Source: Candidatus Saccharimonadia bacterium (lineage in GTDB: Bacteria > Patescibacteriota > Saccharimonadia > UBA4664). From it: a stretch of 64,000 nt of DNA. The notes under the pieces are model-generated. The model did no database searches. It was not told the DNA's origin and was given only the letters and a program-made list of their open reading frames with translations. The stretch spans positions 345,454-409,453 of the forward strand of contig DATKIP010000093.1 of the NCBI GenBank assembly GCA_035544015.1, read 5' to 3'. Below, piece after piece: positions 8,861 through 62,203 of this stretch. Positions within the stretch are counted from its first letter, which is position 1. Each line of letters opens with the position of its first letter. Both the position numbers and the translations under genes were made by a program.

Positions 8861-8939
8861 ACGGTCTGCTACAACAGCGCTGAGGCCGGGACGCCTTCGC
8901 ACCTGGGACGGCACCCAACATCGTGCCGTCCCAGGTGTC

Positions 8940-10100
8940 CTACCGCCGCGCCAGCACCCTCATTTCCGCCGGCCGCCCCAATACCTCGATCCCCGTCACT
9001 CGCCGTCGCACCACAAAACCCGGTTGCGACTTCAGTGCCCAATCCAGCACCCCCACCTCACTCGTGAGCACCACCACCAAACCGCCCGGGCGCACCACCC
9101 GTACCGCCTCGGCCAGCATCCCCCCGTACAACGCCGGCAAATCCTCAGGGCGACCAATTTGCTTTCCCCAAGGCAAATTTGTCACCAATTTATCCACCGA
9201 CGCGTCTTCCAGCGGCAGCTTGCGTGCATCCATGCGTTCAATGCGCACCGGTTTGTGGCGCGGGCCAAAATTAGCCACCGCCGCTTTTACCGCTCCTACG
9301 TCAATATCACCACCCAGCAGCAAACCATGCCGCCCCGCCAAAGCCCGCTCAAGCAATATTGTCCCCGTGCCGCACAACGGGTCCAAAAACACGTCATCGT
9401 CAGCCGGTTCGCTCAGCCGCACCATGGCTGCCGCAATCGTCGGCCGCAAGGCTGCCGCCCGCTCCACCGCCCGGCCGCCCCGAGCACGATTCACACCGCT
9501 CGTCAGACGCAAGCTCACGGTAAGGTTGCGACCAACCTGGTGCAGCCACACCTCAAACGGCGCTTCCCCTGCATTCAGCCGCCAACCCGGACGCGCCCGG
9601 CCCACCCCAGCCTCCGCCGCCCGCTGCAAATCCACCCGCCGATACCCGCGCCAAGCCGCATCATCCGCCTGCGCTACCACCCGAAACACCACTCGCGCCG
9701 GCGTCGGCCGGCCGGCCAGGTGGCCCTGCGCGCGCAGTGCCGACTCCCACACCTCAGGCCGCCCCAGCGCCGCCGTCACCGCCTTCAAATCCACCGTTTT
9801 GCCGCTCAACGGTATCGTTTCCACCACTACAAACACGTCCTCAACCAACCGTAGTCCCAGCAACCCAGCCGGATCACTCGTCTGCACCCACACCAGCTCA
9901 CTACCCCGCGCGCGGCCCGTCGCCACCGGCGCCAAACCCAAACGAGCCGCCATTTCCTCAACGACCAAAACCCTCAAACCCGGAAACATCGATACCAGAA
10001 GTTTCATACGCCTATCGTACATGAATTCACCACCAGACCCGATGCCAATTCGCAAAAAGCCTTTGCTATCGTAAAATTGTTTTGTCTCACGCCCTGCCAA
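8940..10100 (-). CDS. THUMP-domain RNA (guanine-N2) methyltransferase (RlmL/Trm14-like)
   Basis: SAM motif I LDPLCGTGTILLE and motif IV VTNLPWG. N-terminal THUMP-like region. Confidence 0.7.
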   Translation of the reverse strand: MAGRETKQFYDSKGFLRIGIGSGGEFMYDRRMKLLVSMFPGLRVLVVEEMAARLGLAPVATGRARGSELVWVQTSDPAGLLGLRLVEDVFVVVETIPLSGKTVDLKAVTAALGRPEVWESALRAQGHLAGRPTPARVVFRVVAQADDAAWRGYRRVDLQRAAEAGVGRARPGWRLNAGEAPFEVWLHQVGRNLTVSLRLTSGVNRARGGRAVERAAALRPTIAAAMVRLSEPADDDVFLDPLCGTGTILLERALAGRHGLLLGGDIDVGAVKAAVANFGPRHKPVRIERMDARKLPLEDASVDKLVTNLPWGKQIGRPEDLPALYGGMLAEAVRVVRPGGLVVVLTSEVGVLDWALKSQPGFVVRRRVTGIEVLGRPAEMRVLARR

Positions 10101-12503: not shown

Positions 12504-13352
12504 ATGCAAATCTCTAACATTTCTCACAACTCAAACTCGTTTCCAGATATACTCAGGCAAATTACCGAACCGCCCAGAAGCATAAACGTTTTAGGAACTT
12601 TGCCCAAAGACTCCATGGTAGCGGTCGTCGGCACGCGCCGGCCCACCGCTTACGGCGAACGCGTCACCTACCAAATAGCAGGGGAGTTGGCCAAGGCCGG
12701 CGCCGTCATCGTGAGCGGCCTAGCGATCGGCGTGGATTCCATCGCTCACCGCGCCGCCCTCGATGCCGGCGGCCGCACCGTGGCCGTACTAGCTCACGGT
12801 CTCGACCGCATCTACCCGCCCCGCCACCGCGGCCTGGCCAAAGAGATTCTCGCCTCCGGCGGTGCGCTGGTTTCTGAGTACGACATTGGCACCCCGGCCC
12901 ACAAACACCACTTCGTGGAGCGCAACCGCCTCATCGCCGGCCTGTGCGCCGCCACCATCGTGACCGAAGCCGCCACCAAAAGCGGCTCGCTCATCACCGC
13001 CCACCGCGCCGCCAAATACAACCGGCTCGTGATGGCCGTGCCCGGCAACATCACCTCCGTCTACTCAGCCGGCCCCAACAATCTGATCCGCACCAATATT
13101 GCCACCCCCATCACTTCCACGGCCGATGCCATCGTAGCGCTGGGCTTCCACGCCCGCGAGGCTGTGCCCGTGTCGGCCCAAAGCCCCGACGAAGCCAAAA
13201 TCCTCGAGCTCCTCGAAGGCGGCGCCAGCAATAGCGAAGACCTCATCGCCGGCGGCAATTTCAGCGCCGCCCAATTTGCCAACATCATCAGCCTCATGGA
13301 AATCACCGGCAAGGTCCGCAACCTCGGCGCCGGACAATGGGTGGTGCGGTAA
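12504..13352 (+). CDS. dprA: DNA processing protein A (DNA-uptake/recombination mediator)
   Basis: DprA Rossmann-like core (VAVVGTRRPTAYGERVT...SGLAIGVDSIAHRAAL...GGRTVAVLAHGLD). Confidence 0.85.
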   Translation: MQISNISHNSNSFPDILRQITEPPRSINVLGTLPKDSMVAVVGTRRPTAYGERVTYQIAGELAKAGAVIVSGLAIGVDSIAHRAALDAGGRTVAVLAHGLDRIYPPRHRGLAKEILASGGALVSEYDIGTPAHKHHFVERNRLIAGLCAATIVTEAATKSGSLITAHRAAKYNRLVMAVPGNITSVYSAGPNNLIRTNIATPITSTADAIVALGFHAREAVPVSAQSPDEAKILELLEGGASNSEDLIAGGNFSAAQFANIISLMEITGKVRNLGAGQWVVR

Positions 13353-14155: not shown

Positions 14156-14752
14156 ATGCCCAACGAGCAGCAAACACGCGGGATCAGCGCCGCAGGAGCT
14201 GCTGTCTTCGTCATCGGCCTCATCGCCATAGTAGGCCTAGCCGGTAACAACGATTCCGACAGCCGCCCGTCATCCTGTGGCCAGAAGCCAATAACCCATT
14301 CCGGAATTCCCGGAGCCCGCTTCACGAAGTTCGACTGCCTCCCGGGAGCTACCGCGCTCCCGGCTGTCACCCGGGCCCAGCGCGACCAAGAACTATACCT
14401 GGTCCTAGCCGGCTGGAAGGGCACCTCCAACGCCACCATCGGAGTCGTCCCTCCGCCCCTCGCCTCCACGGACTCGCTCTTCCAGGTCAGTGGCAATGAG
14501 GGCCTATGGTTTGGCCTGACCACCGCCAACACCAACCCTGCCATCAAGAATAGTAAGGGGAAGCCGGTGAAAGTCAGGGTGGTCATCCAAGCCAACCTCA
14601 GGGTAGGCAGCCGTTTGACCTGCGCCATCTATCGCATAACGAACTTCGACACACCCGGAAATGTTGCCAGTCAACACCGGCTGGAGCACAAAGAGTTCCA
14701 CCCCGACCGGCCTCTACGCAACCCGACCTTGGAATGCAGCATTCCCCTCTAG
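14156..14752 (+). CDS. small secreted four-Cys protein, family member E
   Basis: RBS aagggag. LYLVLAGWKG, VVPPPL, WFGLTTANT blocks. Cysteines SSCG...FDCLPG and TCAIYRITN...ECSIPL. Confidence 0.6.
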   Translation: MPNEQQTRGISAAGAAVFVIGLIAIVGLAGNNDSDSRPSSCGQKPITHSGIPGARFTKFDCLPGATALPAVTRAQRDQELYLVLAGWKGTSNATIGVVPPPLASTDSLFQVSGNEGLWFGLTTANTNPAIKNSKGKPVKVRVVIQANLRVGSRLTCAIYRITNFDTPGNVASQHRLEHKEFHPDRPLRNPTLECSIPL

Positions 14753-14779
14753 CACCAGCGGCACGAGACACCCGCACCA

Positions 14780-14814
14780 CCCGAGAACGGCGCCCTCCAG
14801 CGTCGTTCTCGGGG
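14780..14814 (+). terminator. family hairpin CCCGAGAACGGCGCC...CGTCGTTCTCGGGG
   Basis: Inverted repeat after E. 3' flank conserved with the F copy. Confidence 0.5.
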
Positions 14815-14860
14815 CACCACCCACCTAGGCGCTCCTTCACCCCAATCGGAAGGATCCATC

Positions 14861-15502
14861 GTGTCGAGAAGCCGAACAGCAGCGAAAGCACGCCTTCTTG
14901 TGATGGCGCTGATCGGAGCCAGTCTGGTCATCGGCACCACCCAAGTTGGCCGGATGCTTCCCGGCAGCAATGCGGACGCCTGCCCCGTCGCCACCCCCAA
15001 TCCCGCCGACAGCGGCGTGGTGGTAGTCGGAGCCAACGACTGCATCCCCCGGATGCCGCCAGTCCCCAAATCCATCAGAGACCGAGAGCTCTTCGTGGTC
15101 GTGGCTGGCTGGAGCAATCTCTTCGGGGTTCCCTACGAGACCGGCGTCAGCATCAATGTATCGCCGCCACCGCTCGGAATGACCGAACGCACCATTCGCC
15201 TGCCGCAACCTACAGGACACTGGTACGGCGTCACCATCGGCGCCCAACCCGGCGACATACCAGATTTCAAAGACAACAACTACCGGGTCCTCATGGGAGT
15301 GGGGGCTTCAGACGCCACCCACAAACACCACCCCAACTCCGGCCTGGCCTGCGGCATCTATCGCCTCACCACACCCGATGCACCCGAAAACAGCATCGTG
15401 CGAGCAAATTTTCTCAGCGGAGAAATCTCCACTCCCGCAGAAGAGGCCCCCCCCGATTATTCATTGCCGGTATCCCAACCGCAAGTAACGCCAGCGGCCT
15501 GA
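14861..15502 (+). CDS. small secreted four-Cys protein, family member F
   Basis: RBS ggaagga. LFVVVAGWSN, VSPPPL, WYGVTIGAQ blocks. Cysteines ADACP...NDCIP and ACGIYRLTT. Confidence 0.6.
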   Translation: MSRSRTAAKARLLVMALIGASLVIGTTQVGRMLPGSNADACPVATPNPADSGVVVVGANDCIPRMPPVPKSIRDRELFVVVAGWSNLFGVPYETGVSINVSPPPLGMTERTIRLPQPTGHWYGVTIGAQPGDIPDFKDNNYRVLMGVGASDATHKHHPNSGLACGIYRLTTPDAPENSIVRANFLSGEISTPAEEAPPDYSLPVSQPQVTPAA

Positions 15503-15521
15503 GCACGAGACGCCCGCACCA

Positions 15522-15558
15522 CCCGGGAACGGCGCCACACAGCGGTGCCGTTCCCGGG
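15522..15558 (+). terminator. family hairpin CCCGGGAACGGCGCC...GGTGCCGTTCCCGGG
   Basis: Inverted repeat after F. Confidence 0.5.
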
Positions 15559-15602
15559 GCACCACCGCTTGAACCCGCGCCCATACCTGCTACAATATCA
15601 AA

Positions 15603-16559
15603 ATGAAGTTTTGGCAACAGCTACCGCAGCCGTTCTTTGTGCTAGCCCCCATGGACGACGTCACCGACGTGGTTTTTCGGCAGCTCATAGCCGAAATCGC
15701 GCCACCAGACGTCTTCATGACCGAATTCGTCTCGGTGGACGGCCTCCAATCAGCCGGCCGCACCGTCACGCTCGAACGCCTGCGCATCGCCCCCGGCAGC
15801 GCCAGCAACCTCGTGGCCCAAATCTGGGGCAACGACCCCGAGCGCTTCTACCGTTCCGCCCAAGACATCGCCGCGCTGGGCTTCGCCGGCATCGACATCA
15901 ACATGGGCTGCCCCGAGAAGGGGATTGTAGCCCGCGGCTGCGGTGGCGGCCTCATCGGCCACCCCGACGCCGCGGCCGACATCATCGCCGCCACCAAGGC
16001 CGGCGCGCCCCATCTGCCCGTCAGCGTCAAGACTCGCCTCGGCCTCGGCCAACCCATCACCGAAGACTGGGCTGGCTTCCTGCTCGGCCAAGACCTTGCC
16101 GCCCTCACCATCCACGGCCGGACCGTGCGCGAAATGAGCAAAGTCCCGGCGCACTGGGACGAAATCGCCAAAGTAGTGCGCCTACGCAACCAACTGGCCG
16201 TGCCCACCAAGATCATCGGCAACGGCGACATCGAAAGCCGCGCCCACGGCCTGCAATTGGCCTCAGACACCGGCGTCGACGGCCTCATGATCGGCCGTGG
16301 CATCTTCCACGACCCCTTCATCTTCGACCCCGCCCAGGCCACCGCTGACCCCCAAAAACGCCTCGCCATCCTCCTCCGCCACGTCGAGCTCTACGAGCAG
16401 TGGGGGAGTACCAAGTCGTTCCAAACCCTGAAGAAATTCTTCAAAATCTATGCCAACTCCTGGCCCGGCGCCGCCGAACTGCGCGCCGAACTCATGGAGA
16501 CTTCCATGCCAGCGCAGACACGAGGCATTATTGCCGCACATTTAGGAAAAATCCAGTAG
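15603..16559 (+). CDS. dus: tRNA-dihydrouridine synthase
   Basis: Dus/TIM-barrel motifs FVLAPMDDVTDVVFR and GIDINMGCPEK. Confidence 0.85.
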   Translation: MKFWQQLPQPFFVLAPMDDVTDVVFRQLIAEIAPPDVFMTEFVSVDGLQSAGRTVTLERLRIAPGSASNLVAQIWGNDPERFYRSAQDIAALGFAGIDINMGCPEKGIVARGCGGGLIGHPDAAADIIAATKAGAPHLPVSVKTRLGLGQPITEDWAGFLLGQDLAALTIHGRTVREMSKVPAHWDEIAKVVRLRNQLAVPTKIIGNGDIESRAHGLQLASDTGVDGLMIGRGIFHDPFIFDPAQATADPQKRLAILLRHVELYEQWGSTKSFQTLKKFFKIYANSWPGAAELRAELMETSMPAQTRGIIAAHLGKIQ

Positions 16560-16628: not shown

Positions 16629-17213
16629 ATGAGCCGCACCGCCCAGCGCGGAGTGATTGCCCGGATCGGTGGCCTCTTGTTCACAGTCGTGGCGCTCTTA
16701 GCCGGCACTGTAGCGATCATGAGCTCGACCGGCACCAAGACCTGCAAGTCCGCACCGGCCCCCGCTCCAGCCGTCCAGTTGGCAGCCCAAACCGCCGCGG
16801 CCCCCGAGAGCACCCGGTACGTCTTCTTGGCCCAATGGACTCGCTTCCAGCCCAACGAAGTCAACATTCTCTACACCGACTACCTGGAAGATGGCCACCC
16901 GCGCAAGCAGATCGTCCTCGACACTGACAAGGGCCCCAGCAGCTGGAAGACCGTGATCACCGCGCCAAACGGCAGCAAGCCCACGCTCGAGATCACGCCG
17001 CCCCCCTGGGCCTGCAACGATGTCCATGGGCTCACCAAAGGCGCCTCTGTGAGCTGTGTCGTTTACCTGGTCAGCACCAGCAAGCCGGAAGACAGCATGA
17101 TCCCGTCCAACGTCCAGGCCCGTGCCACCAACACGACCGGACAAAGCGCAATTTGCAAGGACTTCACCGCCGGGAAGCGGAAGCACGCCTCAGAACTCGA
17201 TCCCGAGCACTAG
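16629..17213 (+). CDS. small secreted Cys-containing protein, family member G
   Basis: RBS aggagg, spacer 8 nt, ATG. MSRTAQRGVIARIGGLLFTVVALLAG...TGTKTCKSAP. C-terminal WACND...SCVVYLVS...ICKDF. Confidence 0.6.
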   Translation: MSRTAQRGVIARIGGLLFTVVALLAGTVAIMSSTGTKTCKSAPAPAPAVQLAAQTAAAPESTRYVFLAQWTRFQPNEVNILYTDYLEDGHPRKQIVLDTDKGPSSWKTVITAPNGSKPTLEITPPPWACNDVHGLTKGASVSCVVYLVSTSKPEDSMIPSNVQARATNTTGQSAICKDFTAGKRKHASELDPEH

Positions 17214-17261
17214 CCGGGCACCGCGTACATCCGAGACTGTCCCGCCGAGGCACAGCACCCC

Positions 17262-17300
17262 GGCACGGGGGCCGCAATGGCGCAAAACAGCGCCATCGCG
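17262..17300 (+). terminator. hairpin GGCCGCAATGGCGC-loop-GCGCCATCGCGGCC after member G
   Basis: Near-perfect 14-bp inverted repeat. Sibling copy at 18508. Confidence 0.5.
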
Positions 17301-17407
17301 GCCCCCCGCACCATCGTCCCAACCCCAGCACCCGTCCGTCGCTCTAGCAGCCCTTTCACAACCACGGCCACGCAAAGCCCCATCAGCCACCCAGCGAGCG
17401 TCAGATC

Positions 17408-17725
17408 GTGCTCCGATTGGCCTGGCGGCAAGCCCCCGACGGCGTCACCATCCGCTACCGGATCGGCCACCAGCGCGAAATCACCATAACCGACGGCCGG
17501 CACGAACACGAAGGGCTTGAGTTTCCCGTCCCCGCCGAAATCGGCGACGAGATCAAGCTTTCTATCACGCCGGTCTTCGAAAACGAATTCACCCCCACGA
17601 ACGTGCGCTGCTTCATCTACCAGATCAAGTTCGGCCGACGCATCGAGGGGCACGTGGATCCGCCACACGGCTATACCCCCGACGCGCTTGAATCTGCCCA
17701 CTGCAAGTGGGTAGTCACGCCCTAG
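17408..17725 (+). pseudogene. N-terminally truncated remnant of the small Cys-pair family (domain only, no anchor or signal)
   Basis: Carries the family C-terminal hallmarks (RCFIYQIKF...HCKWVVTP). The upstream region is occupied by the G hairpin. A P/T/A linker-like stretch is present in another frame (17277 ORF), implying frameshift or deletion decay. Confidence 0.35.
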
Positions 17726-17823
17726 CCGGTTCGGGGACGGCGGCATCACCGTCGTCCCCGAACCCCCAAATCTATTGAAATCCGCGCCGTCCCGAGGCCA
17801 AACCTCAAAAACCCTTTTAAGCA

Positions 17824-17858
17824 AAAATCCAGTAGAATAATTCACGTCTCGTACAACG
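17824..17858 (+). promoter_or_regulatory. putative promoter of member H (TAGAATAAT...CACGTCTCGTACA), part of a ~130-bp duplicated block
   Basis: Near-identical to 16548..16580 including AAAAATCCAGTAG, which is the terminal KIQ-stop of dus at the G locus. Confidence 0.4.
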
Positions 17859-17903
17859 TGAGGCTTCTTTCCATCCCAACTTTTGCCCCAGGAGGCAGAC
17901 AAC

Positions 17904-18461
17904 ATGACTCGCACCGCCCGGCGCGGAGTGATTGCTCGGATCGGTGGCCCCGTGGTCACGGTCTCAATACTAGCGATCGGAGCCATAGTGATCGCCAACT
18001 CAACCGGCACCAAGACCTGCAAGTCCGCACCGGGCCCCGCTACTCCGGCCACCACCAAGCCCGCATCGGCCTCCAGCGACTGCTCCACCCCACCCGGCTC
18101 CCAGACCACCGCTCTTCGGCATGTCCACACGTACTACGGCACCTCCACAAAAACCGGCTACGCTATGGGCGCCCAGTACCAAGTCGGGCCGATTAGCGGC
18201 AATATACTCCCGTTCTCTCGCGGCAAGCGCGAAGCCAGCTGGACCGGCCTACTCACCGCCTTCGAAGGCGACCCACTCACAATCGACATCACCGGGGTCG
18301 GCGACGCTAACCCGACAGCCAAAGTCGCGTGCGCCTTCTACCGCATCACCGACCCGGCCAATCTCAGGGCCAACGCCGTACCTGCCAACCTCGTCGGAGT
18401 ACCCCAGTCCGGCACGGGCCCAAAGGGCCACGCCCACTGCGAAATAATCTCCGGCGAGTAG
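17904..18461 (+). CDS. small secreted four-Cys protein, family member H
   Basis: RBS ggagg then ATG. MTRTARRGVIARIGGPVVTV...TGTKTCKSAP (N-terminus near-identical to G). CST...ACAFYRITD...HCEIISGE. Confidence 0.6.
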   Translation: MTRTARRGVIARIGGPVVTVSILAIGAIVIANSTGTKTCKSAPGPATPATTKPASASSDCSTPPGSQTTALRHVHTYYGTSTKTGYAMGAQYQVGPISGNILPFSRGKREASWTGLLTAFEGDPLTIDITGVGDANPTAKVACAFYRITDPANLRANAVPANLVGVPQSGTGPKGHAHCEIISGE

Positions 18462-44073: not shown

Positions 44074-45207
44074 TTAGTTCTTCCTCAGTAACAATAATTG
44101 CCGTCCGACCACTTGATCGTCCCGCGCGTAGAGCAGGGGAGTGCGGACATGCTCAAAACCCTTCAGAGTGTAGCCTAAATCAGGTAATTCGTCAACCAAT
44201 CCCAGATACTGCCAGCGACGGCCATCCCGCCACGCCGGCGCACACAGGCTCACCTCAGCTCCCGCCGGCAATTGCGCCGCAAAATTGCGCAAACTCATGC
44301 GGTACAATTCCCGCAGTTCAGCCCGCATCCGGTCGAGCTCCGCCGGCCCTGGCAGCCGCATCAGGTTGGGCCCCAGGTAGCCCTCGCTCACCACGGCACA
44401 CCCGGGCGGCAGCCGCACCAAGCGGGCGTCAGCCTCGGCCGCACTCCAAGCCGGCAGGGGAGTCGACACCTGCTCGGCCAGCCAAGCAAGATTCGCGCTG
44501 GTCGCCGTCACCATCTCCGCCGCCAGATCCGAACCCGCCACCACCCGCCCCGCCAGCAGCGCCTCCTGCAGCACCACTCCCGTACCGCAAAACGGATCGC
44601 ACACCACCTCGGCTCGCACCGTATTCACGAGCACCTGCGCCAATTTCGGCGGCAGCATGCCTACGGTAGCACTCCGGGCCGGCCGGCCGTAGTCGCGCTT
44701 GGAGTACCAGTCGATATCCTGCACCCCCACCGTACGCGCCACGATCATTTCATGCTCGGCCACCACCACGAGCAGCTCAAAACCATCCTCGATCACGCGG
44801 TTGTGGCGCAACTCCGCCGCCGATACCGCCAGCCCCTTCGCCGGCTGCACCAACCGCACCGATCCGCGCTCACGCAGCCGCTTCTTCAATTCCAGCCCCG
44901 CCGCCGTCAGCGACCGTGCCGTCTCGCGCCCACCGTAGCAGCTGATGGCAAACGGCGTCTTCGTGGCGCGCATCGGCAGCGCCTCGAAATCCACCGGCAA
45001 CTCCCGCAACGGCTTCACCGCACCCCGGTACAATACCTCGCCCAGCTTCAACACCCCACCCAGCTGGTCCACGGGCACCATTTCACCCACCAAGGCAACC
45101 TGCCGTCCAAACGGTCGCACCCCCTGCGCACCCAACACAGATTCTAGCTCCACCAAGCCAAGTTCCGGCTGACGACCCAAAATTGCCACGAAATTAAGTA
45201 ATGACAT
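44074..45207 (-). CDS. THUMP-domain RNA methyltransferase (second paralog)
   Basis: Motif I CDPFCGTGVVLQEA. Abuts rpmA on the same strand (44073/44074). Confidence 0.65.
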   Translation of the reverse strand: MSLLNFVAILGRQPELGLVELESVLGAQGVRPFGRQVALVGEMVPVDQLGGVLKLGEVLYRGAVKPLRELPVDFEALPMRATKTPFAISCYGGRETARSLTAAGLELKKRLRERGSVRLVQPAKGLAVSAAELRHNRVIEDGFELLVVVAEHEMIVARTVGVQDIDWYSKRDYGRPARSATVGMLPPKLAQVLVNTVRAEVVCDPFCGTGVVLQEALLAGRVVAGSDLAAEMVTATSANLAWLAEQVSTPLPAWSAAEADARLVRLPPGCAVVSEGYLGPNLMRLPGPAELDRMRAELRELYRMSLRNFAAQLPAGAEVSLCAPAWRDGRRWQYLGLVDELPDLGYTLKGFEHVRTPLLYARDDQVVGRQLLLLRKN

Positions 45208-48824: not shown

Positions 48825-51800
48825 GTGCTACCGTTAGAACCAGAAAGGCGGAGCCAACTTCTCGTGCCACACTCCAAATCAGCGCCCATCACTTTAGCGC
48901 CCATGCCCACCGAGGTCCATGAGCTCTTGGCCGCCGCCACTTCGGCCAAAACCCCCAGTGGGTTCCTGCAGCAAGCCTGCAAAATCCTCAGCCGCACCCT
49001 CCAGGCACCGGTCTGCGGCTTCATTGCGGCGGTCGGCGACGGGCATCACACGATCGCCGAGCAAACGCTGCCCATGGCTGCCCGCGGGCTCCTGCGCTAC
49101 CCCGGCGACCTGTCGGCCGAAACCTTGCGTACCTGGCCGGGAACCGACCAATCCGCCGTCGCCACCGCCGCGGGAGGCCGGCCTCAACACCACATCCTCA
49201 ACTGGCGCGAAGAATACCTAGGCGGCATCATCATCTGGACCGACACCGAGCTCTCCACCGAAAACCAAACCAACCTTCAACATCTCATCAACACCATCGC
49301 CGCCGGCATCAAAACCCTCCTGCTCGAGCAATCCAACAAAAACAGCCTAGCCGAAGCCATCACCCTCCAGCGCATCACTCAGGTCATCACCGGTTCGCTC
49401 GATTTCGACAAAGTCTCGTCGACCCTCTTGCAACAGGCCCGCAAATTCTTTCGCGTCGACGCCGTAGCGCTCGCCTTGGCCAGCCCCGGCGGCCGAGAAT
49501 ACTACGTCGACCAGACCGTAGGACTTTCCCCCGAACTCGTCGCCCACATGCGCGCCTCCAAAGATTCTCCCTTCATCAAGCGACTCATGAAGGCCGACAG
49601 CCCCATCCAGCTCGACAACCTCGAAACTGCCCCGCTTACCCACAACCCCGAGTTGGCCCGGCGCGAGGGCCTGCGCTCAGCCTTGCTAGCGCCTATCTTT
49701 ACCGGCGGCCGGCTGGTGGGCGCGCTCAGCCTCATCTCCAAAACCCCCCGCACCTTCACCTACGCCGAGATTCGCTTCGCCCAAAGTCTGGCCGAGCACA
49801 CCGGCATCGCTATCGCCAACGCCAATCTCCATGCCGGCTTGCGCAAAGCCACGGGCGAAATCGAACAAACCCGCAATCTCATGCGCGACGGCTTGCTCGT
49901 CTTCGACCTTGACCACAAGATGCACTACTACAACGCCGCCGCCGGCAGCACCCTGGGACTAGGACCCGAGCATCTCATGAAACACCTCCCCCTCCGCGCC
50001 CTCAAACGCATTCCGGGCCTCAAAATCGACACCGTCCGGCTCGAAGCCGCTATCGAGCAAGCCCTGCAGGGCCACATCGGCCGCACCCAGTTCTCACTCG
50101 ACGAACACGGCGATACCCGTTACTTCGAAGCCGTCTACTCGCCCTACCGCGACAGCAAAGGCATTCGCATCGGGGCGCTCATGAGCATCCGCGACGTCAG
50201 CTCGCTCTACCTCGAAAAAGAAAAATTGCAAGCCATCCAAAACGGCATCTCGGACGGACTGATTTTGGTCGGCGAGCAAGGCGAAACCATCGAGTGCAAC
50301 CAAGAATGGCTACGACTCTTCAATATCACCGACAACCCGATCGGCCGGCCGTTCTTCGAGCAAATCGCCGCCCGCAAAAACTTCACCTGCGATCACGATC
50401 CCCTCGAAGTGATCAAAAACGTCCTCCGCGGCAAACGCATCACCTGCTACGGGCATGATCTCCAATCCGGCCGTCACGTTCAAATCTCGGTCAATCCCAT
50501 CACCCTCGGCGGCCGCGTCACCGGCGCCGTCGCCACCGCTCGCGACATTACCTCGCTCATCGAAAAAACCGTCGAGGCCAATGAAATGGCAGCCAAAGCC
50601 CACCGTCACCTCCGCGAGCTTTCGCAACTCGCCGAGTTATCGGGCATCGTCGGCTTCAATGTCGCCAACATCTACCAAAAATATCTCGCCAAAACCGCCA
50701 ACTTACTCGAATCGTCTTCAGTGTCGCTCTATCTGTACAACCCCAGCAAACAGCTGCTCGTCCAAGACCAAGCCGTCAGTCCCGACCCCAGTGACACCCT
50801 CACGCTCGAGCTCAACTCACCACACCTAGCTGCCCGAGCCTTCACCAGCCGCCAACCCGTCACTCTTACGGGCCAAAGCGGGGGATTGCACCGCATCGCC
50901 CTGCCCATCACCCACCACTCCAAGACCCTGGGCGTGCTCATCGCCGGCCGCGCCGGCCGCGCCTACGGCGAACACGAAGCCAAATTGTTGCGCATGGTAG
51001 CCACCCGCCTCGCCGTGCTCGTCGAAAACGCCGCGCTCTACCACGACGTCAATGCTCGACGCGAACGCTGGGAAGCCGTATTCCGCTTCACCGAGGAGGG
51101 GATCGTGATTTTCGACCGCAGCGGCACCATCGTCGGGTTCAACCCCGCCTGCACCCAGATCACCCAATACCACCCCGCCGAAGCCATCGGCAAGCCGTTT
51201 AGCAAGGTCATCAAAAACGTCAGCCCCGACACCATCAGCGGCACCAATGTCGGCCCCATCGAGCGCGTGCTCGAAGAAGGCGTCACCATCGCCAAAAGCG
51301 AACAACTCATCGAAAACCGCGGCGGCACCCGCGTCTGGACCGAGATCAGCTACTCGCCGATCTTCGACGACGCCGGCCGAGTCACCTCCGGCATCGCCAT
51401 TATCCGCAACACCACCAAAGACCGCGAAGTCGAAGAGATCAAATCCGACTTCATTTCGATCGTGTCCCACGAACTCCGCACCCCGCTCACCGCGATCAAA
51501 GGCTTTCTCTCCATGACCCTCAAGCACGATTTTGGCGAGCTCAGCGACAAACAGTTTCACTATCTCAGCCGCGTCTACCAATCAAACCAACGCATGATCG
51601 ACCTCGTCGAAGATCTCATGGATGCCACCTACATCGAATCAGGCAAAATTACCCTCAACATCGCCCCTGTCGCCCTCGACAGTGTCATCGCGAGCGTCGT
51701 CTCCGAGGTGGCCGCCAAAGGTGCCGCCAGCCACATCATGATCAATGTCCGCCGCCGCCAACGCCTGCCGCTAGTGCTCGCCGACGAGACCAGGCTCCAT

Positions 51801-52139
51801 CAAATCATCCTCAACCTCGTCGACAACGCCATCAAATACTCAATGCCAGGCACCGAGGTCCAAATAAACTTCCGCATCCAGGGCGACGAGCTCATCACCA
51901 CCGTAGCCGATCACGGCGTAGGCATTGGCAAGTCCCAGATCGACCGCCTGTTCACCAAATTCGGCCGCATTTTCAATCCCCTGAGCGTCCAAGCCGGCGG
52001 CACCGGCCTCGGCCTCTACATCGTCAAAAACCTCATCGAGTCACACGACGGCCGCATTTGGGTCACGAGTATCGAGGGCAAAGGCAGCCGATTTAACTTC
52101 AGTTTGCCCATTGCCAAGCAATTACCGCTCATAGAGTAA
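48825..52139 (+). CDS. multi-sensor hybrid-type histidine kinase (GAF plus multiple PAS, HisKA, HATPase_c), cytoplasmic
   Basis: H-box SHELRTPLTAIKGF. N-box LVDNAIKYS. G-boxes DHGVGI and GGTGLGLYIVK. Upstream GAF- and PAS-like repeats. Confidence 0.85.
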   Translation: MLPLEPERRSQLLVPHSKSAPITLAPMPTEVHELLAAATSAKTPSGFLQQACKILSRTLQAPVCGFIAAVGDGHHTIAEQTLPMAARGLLRYPGDLSAETLRTWPGTDQSAVATAAGGRPQHHILNWREEYLGGIIIWTDTELSTENQTNLQHLINTIAAGIKTLLLEQSNKNSLAEAITLQRITQVITGSLDFDKVSSTLLQQARKFFRVDAVALALASPGGREYYVDQTVGLSPELVAHMRASKDSPFIKRLMKADSPIQLDNLETAPLTHNPELARREGLRSALLAPIFTGGRLVGALSLISKTPRTFTYAEIRFAQSLAEHTGIAIANANLHAGLRKATGEIEQTRNLMRDGLLVFDLDHKMHYYNAAAGSTLGLGPEHLMKHLPLRALKRIPGLKIDTVRLEAAIEQALQGHIGRTQFSLDEHGDTRYFEAVYSPYRDSKGIRIGALMSIRDVSSLYLEKEKLQAIQNGISDGLILVGEQGETIECNQEWLRLFNITDNPIGRPFFEQIAARKNFTCDHDPLEVIKNVLRGKRITCYGHDLQSGRHVQISVNPITLGGRVTGAVATARDITSLIEKTVEANEMAAKAHRHLRELSQLAELSGIVGFNVANIYQKYLAKTANLLESSSVSLYLYNPSKQLLVQDQAVSPDPSDTLTLELNSPHLAARAFTSRQPVTLTGQSGGLHRIALPITHHSKTLGVLIAGRAGRAYGEHEAKLLRMVATRLAVLVENAALYHDVNARRERWEAVFRFTEEGIVIFDRSGTIVGFNPACTQITQYHPAEAIGKPFSKVIKNVSPDTISGTNVGPIERVLEEGVTIAKSEQLIENRGGTRVWTEISYSPIFDDAGRVTSGIAIIRNTTKDREVEEIKSDFISIVSHELRTPLTAIKGFLSMTLKHDFGELSDKQFHYLSRVYQSNQRMIDLVEDLMDATYIESGKITLNIAPVALDSVIASVVSEVAAKGAASHIMINVRRRQRLPLVLADETRLHQIILNLVDNAIKYSMPGTEVQINFRIQGDELITTVADHGVGIGKSQIDRLFTKFGRIFNPLSVQAGGTGLGLYIVKNLIESHDGRIWVTSIEGKGSRFNFSLPIAKQLPLIE

Positions 52140-58161: not shown

Positions 58162-58257
58162 TTTGGCCAAGCGCCTATTTACATTGAGAAAAAAATGTTA
58201 TAGTATTATAATCAAATTGAGACGAAACAGGCCCAAACATAAATATTGCCGTAGCTA

Positions 58258-58286
58258 TTGACGCGACATATTATATGTTTTATAAT
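58258..58286 (+). promoter_or_regulatory. near-consensus sigma-70 promoter TTGACG-N17-TATAAT
   Basis: ttgacgcgacatattatatgttttataat, ~10 nt before the 58295 start. Confidence 0.5.
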
Positions 58287-58294
58287 TTCAGACG

Positions 58295-59329
58295 ATGACA
58301 AATTCCGTTACCACCAAATCGAATATCACCTACGATTACAAATCGGCCGTTGAGCAAATCCTCAAGGAACTCCGGCGCGACCGTGACCGGCAAATCATTG
58401 CCCGCCGGTTTGGCTTTGGTTTGGCGCGCCGCCAAACGCTCGAGAAAATCGGCAGCGACTTCGAGATCACCCGCGAACGCGTCCGCCAGATCGAGAAAGC
58501 CGCCATTGCCAAAATGCGCACCAGCGACGCCGCCGAAATCGCCACGGGTAGCGAACTCTTGCGCGCCATCACCGCCGATCAGGGCGGAATCGTGCCCACC
58601 GCCGACGTTGCCGAAATGCTCGGCGCCCCCGAAACCGACGTACCATATCTCGTTTTTCTAGCCCTCCTGTCGCCCAGCGTTGACCTCATCGAAGACAACG
58701 ACGATACCCGTCAAGCCGCCGGCCTCGCCGGTATCTATTCGCCGTCGCAAGTCAACCAGTTGCTCACCGAAATCGCCAAAACCGTCAAAGACCACGCCAA
58801 ACCGATCACGCTTGCCAAGCTCAAGATCAAACTCCCTTCCGAGCTCGATAGCCGCACCCTCGAGCAGCTCATGCGCATCTCCAAGCGCCTAGCCTACTTC
58901 GACGGCAAATGGGGCCTCATCACCTGGCCCGAGGTCAACCCCAAGAGCATCCGCGACAAAACCTACCTGGTGCTGTCGCGCCACGGCCGGCCGCTGCACT
59001 TCTCGGAGATCGCCAAGCACGTCCGCGGCCTCGGCGCCACCAAGCGCAACGTCACCATCCAAGCCGTGCACAACGAGCTCATCAAAGACGTCCGATTCAT
59101 TCTCATCGGCCGCGGTATTTACGCGCTCGCCGAATGGGGCTACACCCCCGGCACCGTCGCCGAAATCATCGCCAGCGTCTTGCGCGAAGAGCAGCCGCTC
59201 CACAAAGACGAAATCGTGCGCCGCGTCTTACTCAAACGCCAGGTCAAAACCACCACCATCATCCTCAACCTGCAAGAAAAAGACCAGTTCCAGCGCACCG
59301 CCAAAGCCACCTACAAGCTCAACGACTAG
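58295..59329 (+). CDS. sigma-70 region-4 (HTH) domain protein with C-terminal winged-helix-like domain
   Basis: LRRDRDRQIIARRFGFG...RQTLEKIGSDFEITRERVRQIEKAAIAKMR matches the sigma-70 region 4.2 HTH. No region 2 seen. Confidence 0.6.
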   Translation: MTNSVTTKSNITYDYKSAVEQILKELRRDRDRQIIARRFGFGLARRQTLEKIGSDFEITRERVRQIEKAAIAKMRTSDAAEIATGSELLRAITADQGGIVPTADVAEMLGAPETDVPYLVFLALLSPSVDLIEDNDDTRQAAGLAGIYSPSQVNQLLTEIAKTVKDHAKPITLAKLKIKLPSELDSRTLEQLMRISKRLAYFDGKWGLITWPEVNPKSIRDKTYLVLSRHGRPLHFSEIAKHVRGLGATKRNVTIQAVHNELIKDVRFILIGRGIYALAEWGYTPGTVAEIIASVLREEQPLHKDEIVRRVLLKRQVKTTTIILNLQEKDQFQRTAKATYKLND

Positions 59330-59359
59330 ACTAGTACCGACCGTCCCAGTGGCGTAAAC

Positions 59360-62203
59360 TTGGGGGGAGGGTACCTGCTAGGCATGAACATTTCTACACT
59401 CCTAAGCCCCATCACGGCCATTTTTCAGATTATCGGCCTGGTGCTGTTTCATTTCTACGGTTGGGTCGTGGTGGTCGCGATCCTGGGCTATCTGTTGCTG
59501 CAAAACCGCCGCAAAACCAAGTGGATCAACACCACCGAAAACATCCTCTTGCTCGTGGAGGTCCCCAAAGACAACGAGAAAAAAGAGCTCTCAGCCGAGC
59601 AGATGTTCGCCTCACTCCATGGCATTTTGCGCCCCAAATCCGAACTAACCCGTGAAGGCTCCGTCCAGGAGCATGTTTCGTTCGAGATCGTCGCCCGGCG
59701 CAACTCGATCCAATTCTATGTCTGGACCCCTCGCCATCTCAAAGATTTTGTCGAAAGCCAGATCTACGCCCAATATCCCACGGTGCAGATCAAAGAAGGC
59801 CCCCAAGACTACGCCGCGGCCGATATCGCCGGCCGTACCATCTACGGCACCGAGCTCGGCCTCACCAAAGATACCCATCTGCCCATCAAAACCTTCGCCT
59901 CATTCGAGGTCGACCCGCTGGCCGGCATCACGGGCGTGCTCGCCAAACTCGAGCAAACGGGGGAGGAGGTGTGGATTCAAATTCTAGCCCGCCCCGTCGA
60001 CGACGCCTGGCAAGATCAGGGCAAATCCTACGTCGAAAACGTCAAAGCCGGCGGGGCCAAGGGCGGCCTCGGCTCACTATTCAAAAATAGCCTCCTCGAG
60101 CTCCCGTCCTATATCGTCAGCAATTTCTTTGGCGCACTGTTTGCGCCCCCCAGCTCCAAAGAAAAAGCCGCTCCCGGCAAAGTCGAGCTCGGCACCGGCC
60201 AACAAGCCGTCATCAAGGCGGTCGAAGAAAAAATCACCAAGCTCGGCTACGAGGTCAAAATCCGCATCGCCTACCTTGGTCCCGACGACGCCTCGGCTCG
60301 CCAGCGCCTCCAGGCCATCGTGGGCGGCTTCAAGCAATTCAACACCACCAACCTCAACGGCTTCACCAACGCCAGGATGTACAACTCACCCGAGTTCATC
60401 GGCGATTACCAAGCCCGGCTGTTTTTCGACACCGGCTATATCCTCAACATCGAGGAACTCGCTTCGCTCTACCACTTGCCCCACAAATCCGTCGAGACGC
60501 CCAATATGGTCTGGACCACCGCCAAAACCAGCGAACCACCCTCAAACATCCCGGTCGAAGGCATTGGCGAAGCCGGCGATCTGAGCCTGTTTGGCCTCAC
60601 CAACTTCCGCGGCCGTCACCTCAAATTCGGCATCAAGCGCAAAGACCGCGGCCGGCACATGTACATCATTGGCCAAACCGGGGCAGGAAAGTCGTTTCTG
60701 CTACAGCTCCTCACGCTGTCCGACATCTACCACGACGTCGGCTTTGCCATCGTCGACCCGCACGGCGACTACGCCACCGACATCATGAAGTACATCCCCG
60801 AACACCGTCTCAACGACGTCATCTACCTCAACCCGGCCGACCGCGAATTTCCCATGGCCTTCAACCCCATGGAAATCACCGACCCCGCCATGAAAGACCA
60901 CATCAGCTCCGAACTCGTGGGTGTACTCAAGCGCATGTTTGAGAGCTGGGGACCACGGCTCGAATACATCTTGCGCTACACCATCCTGGCCCTCCTCGAC
61001 CACCCCGACTCCACCATGCTCGACATTCCCCGCATGCTCAATGAGAAAGACTTCCGCAAAGAAGTCATCCGCAGCGTCCAAGACCCGGTCGTGAAAAGCT
61101 TCTGGGTCACAGAATTTGCCTCCTGGAACGAAAAATTCGCCTCCGAAGCCGTCGCTCCGGTACTCAATAAGGTCGGCGCGTTCGTAGCCAACCCCCTCGT
61201 GCGCAACATCATCGGTCAAAAAAAGAGCGCCTTCAACATCCGGCAAATTATGGATGAAGGCAAAATCCTGCTCGTAAACCTCAGCCGCGGTCAGGTCGGT
61301 GAAGACAACGCCGCCATTCTGGGCGCGCTCATGGTCACCAAAATCCAGCTGGCCGCCATGTCCCGCGCCGACATGCCGCTCGAAGACCGCCGGCCGTTTT
61401 ACCTCTACGTCGATGAGTTCCAAAACTTCGCCACCGACTCGTTCGCCGTCATCCTCTCCGAGGCGCGCAAGTACGGCCTCAATCTCACCGTCGCCAACCA
61501 ATACGTGTCCCAAATGCCCGAGGTCGTGCGCGACGCCGTCTTCGGCAACGTCGGCACCATGGTGAGCTTCCGCATCGGTCCCAGCGACTCCACCGTGCTC
61601 GGCAAATACTTCGAGCCCGTCTTCGAAGCTATCGACCTCACCAAGCTCCACAACCAAAATATCTTCATCTCCATGATCATCGACGGCGAAAAAGCCCCAC
61701 CGTTTTCCGCCGCCACCCTGCGCATGCCCGATCCCGAAAACGACCTCACGCCCACCATCATCCAGATGACCCGCGACCGACTCGCCTCGGCGCGCGCCGT
61801 CGTGGAAGCCGACATCCGGACTCGTACCGCCGGGGGACACGACGAAGGCAACCGGGCTGTCGGCGCTCCCGATCAAAAACCGAACAAAGATCTTCTCAAC
61901 GCCCTCAAGAATCCCACCCCGCCACCCGGCAGCCCGCGGACAGGGGAGCAGGGGAGTGCGCGCCGAACCGAACCGCCACGCCACGACAACCGCGGCGGAA
62001 ACCGGCCCAGCGGTGGCGGAGGAGGCGGCGGGGGACTCAGCAGCCGACCCGTCAGCCAGGATGTCCCCTACCGTCCCGCCGAGCGACGCGAGCCGGCGAT
62101 CCACCAGGCCGCCGCGCCCATTACAGCCGCCCCACCCGCGCCGCCGCCCGCCCAGCCCCCCGCAGGCAGCCTGGAGCCCGGCCAACCCATCAATTTGCGC
62201 TAA
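59360..62203 (+). CDS. type IV secretion coupling-protein-like (VirD4/TraD/TrwB family) membrane ATPase with a long Gly/Pro-rich disordered C-terminal tail
   Basis: Two N-terminal TM helices. Walker A IIGQTGAGKSFLL followed by AIVDPHGDY (DPxGD as in coupling proteins). Walker B YLYVDEFQNF. ~150-aa low-complexity tail (GGGGGGG...PPAPPPAQPPAG). The likely start is ATG 59384. Confidence 0.6.
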   Translation: MGGGYLLGMNISTLLSPITAIFQIIGLVLFHFYGWVVVVAILGYLLLQNRRKTKWINTTENILLLVEVPKDNEKKELSAEQMFASLHGILRPKSELTREGSVQEHVSFEIVARRNSIQFYVWTPRHLKDFVESQIYAQYPTVQIKEGPQDYAAADIAGRTIYGTELGLTKDTHLPIKTFASFEVDPLAGITGVLAKLEQTGEEVWIQILARPVDDAWQDQGKSYVENVKAGGAKGGLGSLFKNSLLELPSYIVSNFFGALFAPPSSKEKAAPGKVELGTGQQAVIKAVEEKITKLGYEVKIRIAYLGPDDASARQRLQAIVGGFKQFNTTNLNGFTNARMYNSPEFIGDYQARLFFDTGYILNIEELASLYHLPHKSVETPNMVWTTAKTSEPPSNIPVEGIGEAGDLSLFGLTNFRGRHLKFGIKRKDRGRHMYIIGQTGAGKSFLLQLLTLSDIYHDVGFAIVDPHGDYATDIMKYIPEHRLNDVIYLNPADREFPMAFNPMEITDPAMKDHISSELVGVLKRMFESWGPRLEYILRYTILALLDHPDSTMLDIPRMLNEKDFRKEVIRSVQDPVVKSFWVTEFASWNEKFASEAVAPVLNKVGAFVANPLVRNIIGQKKSAFNIRQIMDEGKILLVNLSRGQVGEDNAAILGALMVTKIQLAAMSRADMPLEDRRPFYLYVDEFQNFATDSFAVILSEARKYGLNLTVANQYVSQMPEVVRDAVFGNVGTMVSFRIGPSDSTVLGKYFEPVFEAIDLTKLHNQNIFISMIIDGEKAPPFSAATLRMPDPENDLTPTIIQMTRDRLASARAVVEADIRTRTAGGHDEGNRAVGAPDQKPNKDLLNALKNPTPPPGSPRTGEQGSARRTEPPRHDNRGGNRPSGGGGGGGGLSSRPVSQDVPYRPAERREPAIHQAAAPITAAPPAPPPAQPPAGSLEPGQPINLR

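Follow-up and report, generated by a model that had tools for sequence, protein, structure and literature searches.

Which machinery does an ATPase resembling the coupling proteins of type IV secretion systems (T4SSs) serve when its gene lies on a chromosome among housekeeping genes? This question is raised by a gene at 59384..62203 on the forward strand of a stretch of 64,000 nucleotides, hereafter the window, from a Candidatus Saccharimonadia bacterium (GenBank assembly GCA_035544015.1, contig DATKIP010000093.1, positions 345,454 to 409,453). The original prediction, based on the letters alone, regarded its product, here called the window ATPase, as a stand-alone VirD4/TraD-like coupling protein in a cell-envelope context. 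We find that this protein is a P-loop translocase with a membrane anchor, and that within the FtsK-HerA superfamily it belongs to the VirB4/VirD4 branch. Its architecture, judged from sequence profiles and structural models, is that of a VirB4/VirD4 hybrid, in which a membrane hairpin is followed by a VirB4-N-terminal-like domain and an engine resembling that of a type IV coupling protein (T4CP). It does not stand alone: it belongs to a conserved two- or three-gene module together with the gene directly upstream, SIGHARE, and the phylum also has a chromosomal T4SS that is encoded away from this module (PMC12102498, PMC10633639). The reading that we prefer, and to which we assign a probability of about 0.5, is that the window ATPase is a DUF8128-type coupling ATPase serving the chromosomal T4SS of Patescibacteria.

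A considerable part of bacterial diversity belongs to the Patescibacteria, which live attached to hosts; their T4SS is needed for epibiotic growth, and its substrates and route are the question of the field. The system is chromosomal, lacks a relaxase and bears a pilus with VirB2-like pilins, its VirB4 nests in the monoderm/archaeal MPF-FATA clade, and the T4SS genes are essential in Southlakia epibionticum ML1 (PMC12102498, PMC10633639), where no recognisable coupling protein was found in the T4SS cluster (Wang et al. 2023, PMC10633639). It should be noted that unlinked chromosomal T4CP homologues in Patescibacteria have already been published (PMC12102498), and that the window locus is an ordinary member of a very large, catalogued and uncharacterised family.

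A coupling-protein-type engine and a predicted VirB4-like front

The features of the ATPase are listed below. Here and in the rest of the text, amino acid positions in the ATPase refer to the 947-residue frame that begins at TTG 59360, unless 939-residue numbering is indicated.

59384..62203, forward strand: ATPase gene, 939 amino acids from ATG 59384 or 947 from TTG 59360 (the longest open reading frame)
59387..59503, forward strand: N-terminal membrane hairpin of two transmembrane helices, residues ~10-48 (hydropathy; AlphaFold helices 3-24 and 26-50)
59516..60559, forward strand: cytoplasmic alpha/beta domain DUF8128 (PF26449), residues ~53-400 (precomputed Pfam; predicted fold)
60533..60553, forward strand: EPPSNIP, the 'EPPxx(L/I)P' junction motif that closes DUF8128, kept in 114 of 120 homologues
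60572..61804, forward strand: TrwB/VirD4-type nucleotide-binding domain, residues ~405-815 (Pfam, Foldseek, PDB profile, phmmer)
60671-60694, forward strand: Walker A, within the nucleotide-binding domain
~60881-61258, forward strand: all-alpha insertion (about eight helices) separating the two Walker motifs (AlphaFold secondary structure)
61400-61417, forward strand: Walker B, within the nucleotide-binding domain
61838..62200, forward strand: Gly/Pro/Arg/Ala-rich disordered tail, residues ~827-947 (predicted local distance difference test score, pLDDT, < 50; composition)
62177..62200, forward strand: C-terminal motif PGQPINLR, consensus PG(Q/E)x(I/V)x(L/F)R, conserved in homologues

The two N-terminal transmembrane helices of the original prediction are seen both by hydropathy and in the AlphaFold model, and the motifs that it reported are in place: Walker A (GQTGAGKS, residues 438-445), IVDPHGDY (463-470) and Walker B (YLYVDEFQNF, 681-690). 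Profile comparisons indicate that the engine is of the T4SS coupling-protein type. Among the Pfam profiles, TrwB_AAD_bind reaches 40.4 bits (cutoff 20.5) over residues 430-722, T4SS-DNA_transf 22.2 (cutoff 20.1) and TraG-D_C 22 (cutoff 22); DUF87 is also matched (36.3 against a cutoff of 23.2), a match that is generic for the superfamily. Two further profiles, AAA_10 (21.5 against 27.5) and P-loop_TraG (12.2 against 25.8), stay under their cutoffs, the Pfam scan gave no match to CagE_TrbE_VirB, and FtsK_SpoIIIE scores 17.5 against a cutoff of 24, over the P-loop only, with no gamma domain in the protein. When a profile of the family was run against all PDB sequences, only TrwB (E = 2.8e-6) and DotL (E = 0.008) fell under E = 0.01. 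Likewise, in phmmer searches of all open reading frames of related loci, TrwB of R388 (NC_028464, also the source of the TrwK sequence) retrieved 71 Patescibacteria family members, and TrwK, TraC of F, gp155 of phage G and a haloarchaeal VirB4-like query retrieved none of the family. Searches with coupling-protein, VirB4 and FtsK profiles, which the original prediction had proposed, hence do not assign the protein to VirB4/TraC, and the coupling-protein profiles are at or above cutoff. The claim of a coupling-protein ATPase holds for the engine, but the protein is not an ordinary VirD4/TraD, because a separate DUF8128 domain of ~350 residues precedes Walker A.

How far the family is removed from the named coupling proteins can be seen from the NCBIfam T4CP equivalogs, all of which are far under cutoff on the window ATPase (conju_CD1115 37.7/250, SXT_TraD 33.8/366, conj_TOL_TraD 25.3/648). 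Since these models are missed by an order of magnitude, the family appears to be a distant branch and not the orthologue of any named T4CP. Comparison with hhalign of the family profiles with the single TraC and TraD sequences of F gave only low-probability snippets around the P-loop and Walker B.

The full-length AlphaFold model has a pLDDT of 74, rising to ~90 in the ATPase domain, in which the all-alpha domain of about eight helices occupies residues ~500-625 in 939-residue numbering and is likewise modelled at a pLDDT of ~90. Foldseek aligns the full-length model with TrwB at a TM-score of 0.65, a root mean square deviation of ~5 A and 18% identity over ~445 columns; with TrwK/VirB4 the model is collinear over ~900 columns, and the best full-length E-values are those of TrwK.

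The domain in front of the engine carries the Pfam family PF26449 (DUF8128), an assignment taken from the precomputed Pfam annotation of the identical public protein P0001 and of the 119 other homologues listed; our literature searches found no paper that mentions DUF8128. A structure prediction of this domain alone, an analysis that the original prediction had suggested for the ~350 residues before Walker A, is confident (pLDDT 86, predicted TM-score 0.83) and indicates a fold like that of the VirB4 N-terminal domain. Its sole significant matches in the PDB are 13 TrwK/VirB4 chains of R388 (E = 1.7e-5 to 5.6e-4, probability 1.0, TM-score 0.35-0.44). No other P-loop protein matches the model, and the matched part must therefore be the N-terminal domain specific to VirB4. 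Further matches of the model are phage G gp155 (E = 9e-8, TM-score 0.47), a protein that ends in a VirB4-type P-loop domain; a 'type IV transporter' protein; and, among viral models, gp156 of phage G and proteins of the Bacillus phages JL and Slash. A sequence-profile search of the PDB with the N-terminal domain gave low-complexity noise only, and hhalign of the DUF8128 profile against a 41-sequence alignment of VirB4 N-terminal domains (TrwK and 40 homologues) gave a probability of 0.4%. As the profile-profile comparison is negative, we report the likeness at the level of the fold only. DUF8128 is probably, though by no means certainly, homologous to the N-terminal domain of VirB4.

Split and fused forms of the family

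A search with residues 9-425 against 1.84 billion cluster representatives returned 2,575 clusters (50% identity) with DUF8128. Two architectures are seen among them: fused proteins of 800-1,100 amino acids, such as the window ATPase, and stand-alone DUF8128 proteins of ~410-550 amino acids. The latter, encoded in other classes of the phylum (Torok-, Kerfeld-, Magasanik-, Komeili- and Pacebacteria), terminate exactly at ...EELA(S/T)xYHxP...EPPxNLP(I/V); longer versions continue into an acidic linker and finish with a second PPNLP. The gene order in these classes is secA, secD, secF, a gene with Sigma70_r4 and HARE-HTH (that is, SIGHARE), a gene for a transmembrane segment with DUF8128 and an ATPase gene, and the last three are found in this order at loci L002 and L004. 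The separate ATPase is ~560 amino acids long, matches TrwB_AAD_bind/DUF87 and ends in a disordered tail. One stand-alone DUF8128 locus is without an adjacent ATPase. Since DUF8128 and ATPase are adjacent but separate genes in other classes, the protein of Saccharimonadia is best explained as a fusion of two neighbouring genes.

Homologues in T4SS-like clusters outside Patescibacteria

Searching with the N-terminal domain (tblastn) gave matches in phage G and in 44 plasmid records, which comprise Bacillaceae megaplasmids and many plasmids of haloarchaea (23-27% identity over 77-93% of the query); in Pontibacillus, a sigma-like helix-turn-helix (HTH) gene lies 3 kb from the homologue. On plasmids of Actinarchaeum, Haladaptatus and Natrinema (L087, L092 and L093), an ATPase of ~1,050-1,100 amino acids is followed by a stand-alone DUF8128-like protein and a T4CP-like ATPase of ~900-1,030 amino acids. 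The first ATPase has weak Pfam matches (AAA_10 or TraG-D_C, under cutoff) and is annotated as 'conjugal transfer protein' in Natrinema, where a T4SS pilin gene (PF18895) and three genes lacking annotation lie ahead of it. Comparisons with hhalign support the relationship of both other components, with probabilities of 97.4% for the N-terminal domain and the DUF8128-like protein and of 99.6% for the T4CP-like ATPase. The three-gene core sits on plasmids that PLSDB classes as 'non-mobilizable', and it has the appearance of an as yet undescribed T4SS or conjugation-like apparatus of haloarchaea.

In Bacillus phage G (L089, NC_023719, 3854-9418), the homologue is found in its fused form: gp153 is TrbL/VirB6-like, gp155 is VirB4-like, and gp156, annotated as 'MsbA-like', combines DUF8128 with a T4CP-like ATPase and is 24% identical to the window ATPase over 756 residues (E = 1e-54). 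The phage thereby carries a compact T4SS-like set, and related proteins occur in the Bacillus phages JL and Slash. The phage G and haloarchaeal proteins are true homologues of the window ATPase, in fused and in split form; they differ from it in being encoded on mobile elements beside genes for VirB4-like, VirB6/TrbL-like or pilin proteins, and in having no SIGHARE partner. The presence of the pair in T4SS-like clusters of other lineages points to a T4SS-like component placed where a coupling protein would be.

A core family of Patescibacteria and its counterpart in Southlakia

The family has more than 6,600 homologues, and all named ones are from Patescibacteria, with the closest proteins all from Candidatus Saccharimonadales/Saccharibacteria. 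The best 120 homologues are 63-86% identical to the window ATPase over the structured part, and all of them carry PF26449 (DUF8128), PF10412 (TrwB_AAD_bind) and PF01935 (DUF87). Numbers and identities of this order lie well beyond anything that chance would produce. This high conservation, together with the fixed chromosomal position, argues for a vertically inherited core gene and against a gene of a mobile element, and on these sequence data the family is a vertically inherited core family of Patescibacteria.

The supplementary tables for Southlakia epibionticum ML1 list the same gene pair, SEML1_0293/SEML1_0294 (Wang et al. 2023, PMC10633639). SEML1_0294, annotated as 'RpoS', has 349 amino acids with Sigma70_r4 and HARE-HTH, and is essential and Patescibacteria-enriched (PMC10633639). 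SEML1_0293 is flagged as a Patescibacteria-enriched core family and is non-essential at all three time points of the transposon sequencing (Tn-seq) experiment; its normalised reads fall from 5817 to 2940 and 1372, while those of its neighbours are flat (PMC10633639), which hints at a mild fitness cost. SEML1_0293 is the apparent orthologue of the window ATPase, as judged from synteny, length and domain coordinates and not from an alignment; the Pfam coordinates of the two pairs match, and the neighbours differ, being topA and Cas9 in Southlakia and galU and ftsQ in the window. In human-associated Saccharibacteria the gene has topA on one side and a type II CRISPR-Cas9 locus on the other (L060; Southlakia SEML1_0289-0296).

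Southlakia has a second T4CP-like gene, SEML1_0142, which encodes an essential protein of 1,019 amino acids with a TraM-recognition domain (PMC10633639). It has a gap of ~310 residues between its transmembrane segment and the P-loop domain, and it has no counterpart in the window.

On the scale of the phylum, 5,713 VirD4-type homologues have been reported in 2,918 of 3,035 Patescibacteria genomes (Quinonero-Coronel et al. 2025, PMC12102498). VirB4 is present in 2,417 of those genomes, and 148 of the 5,713 VirD4-type homologues are near virB4 (PMC12102498). SEML1_0293 is listed in that study as a VirD4-type coupling-protein homologue that is far from virB4 and non-essential, and the authors remark on this unlinked Southlakia homologue, 'so exaptation cannot be ruled out' (PMC12102498).

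The partner gene SIGHARE

The gene directly upstream of the ATPase and the probable promoter of both are as follows.

58184..58286, forward strand: two sigma-70-like promoter matches, TTGAGA-17-TATAAT and TTGACG-17-TATAAT, each with 11/12 consensus positions
58295..59329, forward strand: SIGHARE, 344 amino acids, Sigma70_r4 46.2 bits (residues 29-75), HARE-HTH 36.4 bits

SIGHARE is the sigma-70 region-4 HTH gene that the original prediction had noticed upstream of the ATPase. Its domain content is a sigma-70 region 4 followed by three or four HARE-HTH/winged-helix repeats, and it has no sigma region 2; a protein with such a predicted composition cannot be a normal sigma factor. Literature searches on HARE-HTH with sigma yielded no papers relevant to Patescibacteria.

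The two genes probably share one operon. The 54-bp gap between them (59329 to 59384) contains no promoter-like or terminator-like site, promoter matches are found upstream of SIGHARE only, where they likely represent the promoter of a two-gene operon, and SIGHARE is upstream in most related loci. We compared 80 loci from species-representative genomes, mostly Saccharimonadia, of which 63 had enough upstream DNA: in 50 of the 63 (~80%), SIGHARE immediately precedes the ATPase gene in the same orientation, with a median gap of ~60 bp, and at one more locus the two genes were merged by the open reading frame finder. SIGHARE is also upstream in other Patescibacteria classes (L002 and L004), and an adjacent copy is missing at L003 and L060; at L060 (7196-7872, 12461-16174) no SIGHARE open reading frame is detectable in the 676-bp gap upstream. 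These data suggest that the ATPase probably works with SIGHARE.

A Saccharibacteria/Berkelbacteria subclade (L066, L067, L070, L071, L075, L077, L078 and L080) has two diverged paralogues of the fused ATPase, whose mutual identity is 36-38% at L067, L070 and L075, the loci at which they were compared. The paralogues flank SIGHARE in 6/8 loci, and secF-secD follows on the opposite strand in 7/8, which indicates that the Sec linkage of other Patescibacteria classes persists there. Because it has the long tail and the terminal motif, and is 47-48% identical to the window ATPase (the upstream copy being 35-38% identical), the downstream copy is the orthologue.

The disordered tail and its terminal peptide

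The original prediction had described a Gly/Pro-rich tail of ~150 residues. Such a tail exists, but it covers ~120 residues. Gly and Pro make up 31-44% within the last 100 residues of the ATPase. All relatives examined have a tail (median 121 residues, range 56-268), the sequence of which is unconserved apart from two short motifs. One of them, PNxx(F/L)LxxLK, is semi-conserved and lies near the start of the tail; the other, PG(Q/E)x(I/V)x(L/F)R, is found within the last 22 residues of 64 of the 120 homologues, compared with 0.1% of shuffled tails, and recurs in remote members of the family and as the terminus of one split ATPase. An origin of the tail from tandem repeats was considered and rejected, just two trivial short DNA repeats being found. 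A comparable arrangement is known from TraD of F, in which a disordered linker with a terminal docking peptide engages TraM.

Comparison with known systems

The window ATPase resembles the T4CPs (VirD4, TrwB of R388, TraD of F and DotL) in having an N-terminal membrane anchor and a Walker A/B domain with an all-alpha insertion, and TraD of F also in its flexible C-terminal tail with an end peptide. It differs from them in the ~350-residue DUF8128 between anchor and engine, as the anchor of T4CPs joins the nucleotide-binding domain directly, and in being a chromosomal core gene that has no linkage to a relaxase or T4SS and is paired with SIGHARE rather than with a relaxosome protein. With VirB4 (TrwK and VirB3-VirB4 fusions) it shares the order of membrane element, alpha/beta N-terminal domain and RecA-like ATPase. 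Unlike VirB4, however, it shows no sequence similarity in its N-terminal part, is missed by VirB4 profiles and queries, and has a TrwB-like all-alpha domain in its engine.

The nearest described analogue of this architecture, though not an orthologue, is CedD of Sulfolobales, a chromosomally encoded protein with a transmembrane segment, a VirB4-N-terminal-like domain and an ATPase domain that is needed for DNA import (PMC11868833). The CedB/CedD system is, like the family studied here, chromosomal, non-mobile, relaxase-less and T4SS-like (PMC11868833). The Ced ATPases, in contrast, belong to the HerA/VirB4 clade and are not TrwB-like, and the window locus has neither an ultraviolet-inducible context nor CedA neighbours. 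The NCBIfam scores of the window ATPase are low for both CedD (33.2 against a cutoff of 600, a weak P-loop match) and CedB (13.9 against 700). The HerA equivalogs of NCBIfam score 16 against a cutoff of 970, and there is no NurA-like neighbour.

Proposed function and alternative explanations

In the reading that we prefer, the window ATPase would be the coupling-type motor of a pilus-bearing T4SS of the monoderm/archaeal type that is encoded elsewhere on the chromosome. DUF8128 and the hairpin would dock it at the membrane platform, as the VirB4 N-terminal domain and VirB3 do. The ring, presumed to be a hexamer by analogy with TrwB, would feed DNA, nucleoprotein or protein cargo to the channel, and the flexible tail with its terminal peptide would recruit an adaptor or cargo, as the tail of TraD recruits TraM; SIGHARE is the obvious candidate for such a partner.

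Several observations weigh against this proposal. No T4SS genes lie within about 8-10 kb of the ATPase gene in the ~80 related Patescibacteria loci, and the VirD4-type homologues of the phylum are commoner than VirB4, with few of them near virB4 (PMC12102498). In Southlakia, SEML1_0293 is non-essential at three time points while T4SS genes are essential (PMC10633639), and SEML1_0142 may be a DUF8128-type paralogue and the true coupling protein of the T4SS. The scores against all NCBIfam T4CP equivalogs are poor, and the likeness of DUF8128 to the VirB4 N-terminal domain is structural only, on predicted models with TM-scores of ~0.4-0.47. Finally, Saccharibacteria variants without the hairpin exist: three orthologues (L069, L082 and L084; 51-54% identical) appear to begin just before DUF8128, and these are either soluble variants or proteins with mis-set start codons.

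Much of this evidence would fit a machine of SIGHARE, DUF8128 and ATPase that has been exapted in Patescibacteria and is independent of the T4SS, for instance a membrane-tethered translocase for DNA or nucleoprotein that is loaded by the multi-winged-helix protein, or a membrane ATPase acting as the control of a sigma-4/delta-like factor associated with RNA polymerase. In neither form would the machine be physically connected to the T4SS channel. The linkage to SIGHARE has been kept across classes and that to virB4 lost, the wider distribution of T4CP homologues and the published remark on exaptation (PMC12102498) agree with such a machine, as does the difference in essentiality between SEML1_0293 and the T4SS, and the secA-secDF linkage recurs in several classes and in the one Saccharibacteria subclade. 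In lineages other than Patescibacteria, however, the DUF8128-ATPase pair forms part of T4SS-like clusters, and loci L003 and L060 do without an adjacent SIGHARE. Moreover, SIGHARE is essential and the ATPase is not, which means that SIGHARE must have another primary job. We regard exaptation, the main alternative, as possible but doubtful. A bolder version, in which SIGHARE, DUF8128 and ATPase form a phylum-wide autonomous hybrid motor outside any T4SS, the tail captures SIGHARE or its DNA, and the family is a surviving intermediate between VirB4 and VirD4 that has retained the N-terminal domain of the former with the engine of the latter, seems to us unlikely; if it were true, the tasks of such a motor might include transporting or arranging DNA or nucleoprotein at the membrane, or linking transcription with the adjacent Sec machinery.

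The order of parts in the protein, which is collinear with VirB3-VirB4, and the fact that TrwK gives the best full-length Foldseek E-values raise the question of whether the ATPase is instead a second VirB4, i.e. an assembly or dislocase ATPase resembling a VirB3-VirB4 fusion that powers the pilus or the extraction of membrane proteins and is not a substrate receptor. CedB and CedD show that proteins composed of a transmembrane segment, a VirB4-like N-terminal domain and an ATPase can replace VirB4 (PMC11868833). The engine is nevertheless TrwB-like by sequence, AAA_10 is under cutoff and CagE_TrbE_VirB unmatched; a canonical essential VirB4 is already present in these genomes; and the homologues of phage G and haloarchaea adjoin a separate ATPase, which is clearly VirB4-like in the phage and weakly so on the plasmids. 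A second VirB4 is for these reasons quite improbable. A role as an FtsK-like pump in chromosome segregation, connected with the dcw cluster, has even less in its favour, despite the position of a membrane-anchored FtsK-HerA ATPase beside ftsQ and its DNA-binding HTH partner: the FtsK_SpoIIIE score is under cutoff, and the adjacency to ftsQ is limited to 23/50 loci and absent in other classes, so that this role is very unlikely. That the ATPase substitutes for FtsK was rejected, since a canonical FtsK, complete with alpha, beta and gamma domains, is encoded by Southlakia and essential there.

Matches in PADLOC could suggest an anti-phage defence ATPase of the MADS, Dnd or HerA type. The window ATPase matches mad8 (64.8 bits, E = 2e-18) as well as HerA and DndH, SIGHARE matches MzaA, and in Southlakia and L060 a Cas9 locus is adjacent. 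Yet these matches are confined to generic parts, namely the ATPase part and the sigma-4 part, respectively; the scanned neighbourhood has no methyltransferase, nuclease, Mad, Dnd or Mza genes; the universal, syntenic and vertically inherited character of the family is unlike that of defence islands; and the adjacency to Cas9 is lineage-specific. The domains of Mad8 are not described in the MADS preprint. A defence function is thus highly improbable. Least credible of all is an origin in an integrated conjugative element or plasmid, of which the gene would be a part or a leftover; it might be thought of because T4CP-type domains are typical of mobile elements and homologues reside on haloarchaeal and Bacillaceae plasmids and in phages. 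Housekeeping genes flank the ATPase gene on both sides over more than 60 kb, no integrase, relaxase, VirB4 or VirB6 was found among the scanned open reading frames, the base composition matches that of the genome, and the chromosomal position is kept in dozens of species with 63-86% identity; context and conservation effectively refute such an origin.

Implications

In the literature that we searched, we did not find the VirB4-like nature of DUF8128 suggested by our models, the split and fused forms, the phylum-wide linkage to SIGHARE, the terminal motifs, or the homologues inside haloarchaeal and phage T4SS-like clusters indicated by our sequence comparisons. The near-universal unlinked 'T4CP homologue' of Patescibacteria would accordingly be a distinct architectural type, with a VirB4-like front and a VirD4-like engine, and could connect the lineages of VirB4 and VirD4 in the evolution of T4SSs. 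Four testable handles present themselves in the genetically tractable Southlakia: the peptide at the end of the tail, the junction motif EPPxNLP, SIGHARE as the partner and the paralogue SEML1_0142.

Start of the ATPase gene

The 100% identical public protein P0001 has 939 amino acids and an annotated start at ATG 59384. A GGAGGG run resembling a Shine-Dalgarno sequence lies 5' of this ATG and overlaps TTG 59360, which makes 59384 the likelier true start. The second helix is directly followed by QNRRKTKW, a positive-inside signal according to which the remainder of the chain is cytoplasmic. In L050 (CP064960.1, a 'complete genome'), the genes for the ATPase, GlyRS and FtsQ are all fragmented, which suggests frameshift errors of a long-read assembly rather than real pseudogenes.

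Genomic neighbourhood

Several statements of the original prediction about the surroundings of the gene were borne out: ftsQ and murG are convergent downstream of the ATPase gene, dprA is present (12504..13352, 46 kb from the ATPase), and no relaxase, VirB4 or VirB6 was detected by Pfam in the part of the window that was scanned, which comprised the 20 largest other open reading frames and the immediate upstream genes, smaller ones not being included. The scanned frames encode housekeeping proteins (a histidine kinase, Der, ClpB, a DEAD helicase, TopA, PBP1, RF, FtsX, CtpA, PyrG, XseA, GlyRS, CofD and GalU) or have no Pfam family. On the longer public contig, the next 10 kb past the window contain the rest of the dcw cluster, ftsW-mraY-PBP-rsmH-mraZ, so that neither the scanned frames nor this extension holds an adjacent complete conjugative element, a finding that the prediction had considered would make the gene an ordinary component of such an element. 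The GC content and skew of the ATPase gene match the rest of the window. The cell-envelope context was correct as far as the adjacency to ftsQ and the dcw genes goes. As evidence for a role in the envelope or in division it is weak, however, because it is specific to Saccharimonadia, with a convergent ftsQ downstream in 23/50 of their loci, and the neighbours in other classes are secA-secDF.

Over the whole window (1-64000), most genes are on the forward strand, the GC skew is uniformly negative (-0.11 to -0.30) and the AT skew positive, so that the coding strand is markedly rich in C and A, which is unusual. Four open reading frames of 290-383 amino acids, at 8923-10074 and 14734-15606 on the forward strand and at 17210-18130 and 44074-45207 on the reverse strand, have no Pfam match at E <= 1e-5; some of these four may be non-coding shadow frames of GC-rich sequence. 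Two genes for sensor histidine kinases are present on the forward strand (48825-52139 and 1041-2831). One of the kinases is a multi-GAF/PAS protein of 1,104 amino acids followed by a stand-alone response regulator, a notable investment in signalling for a reduced genome.

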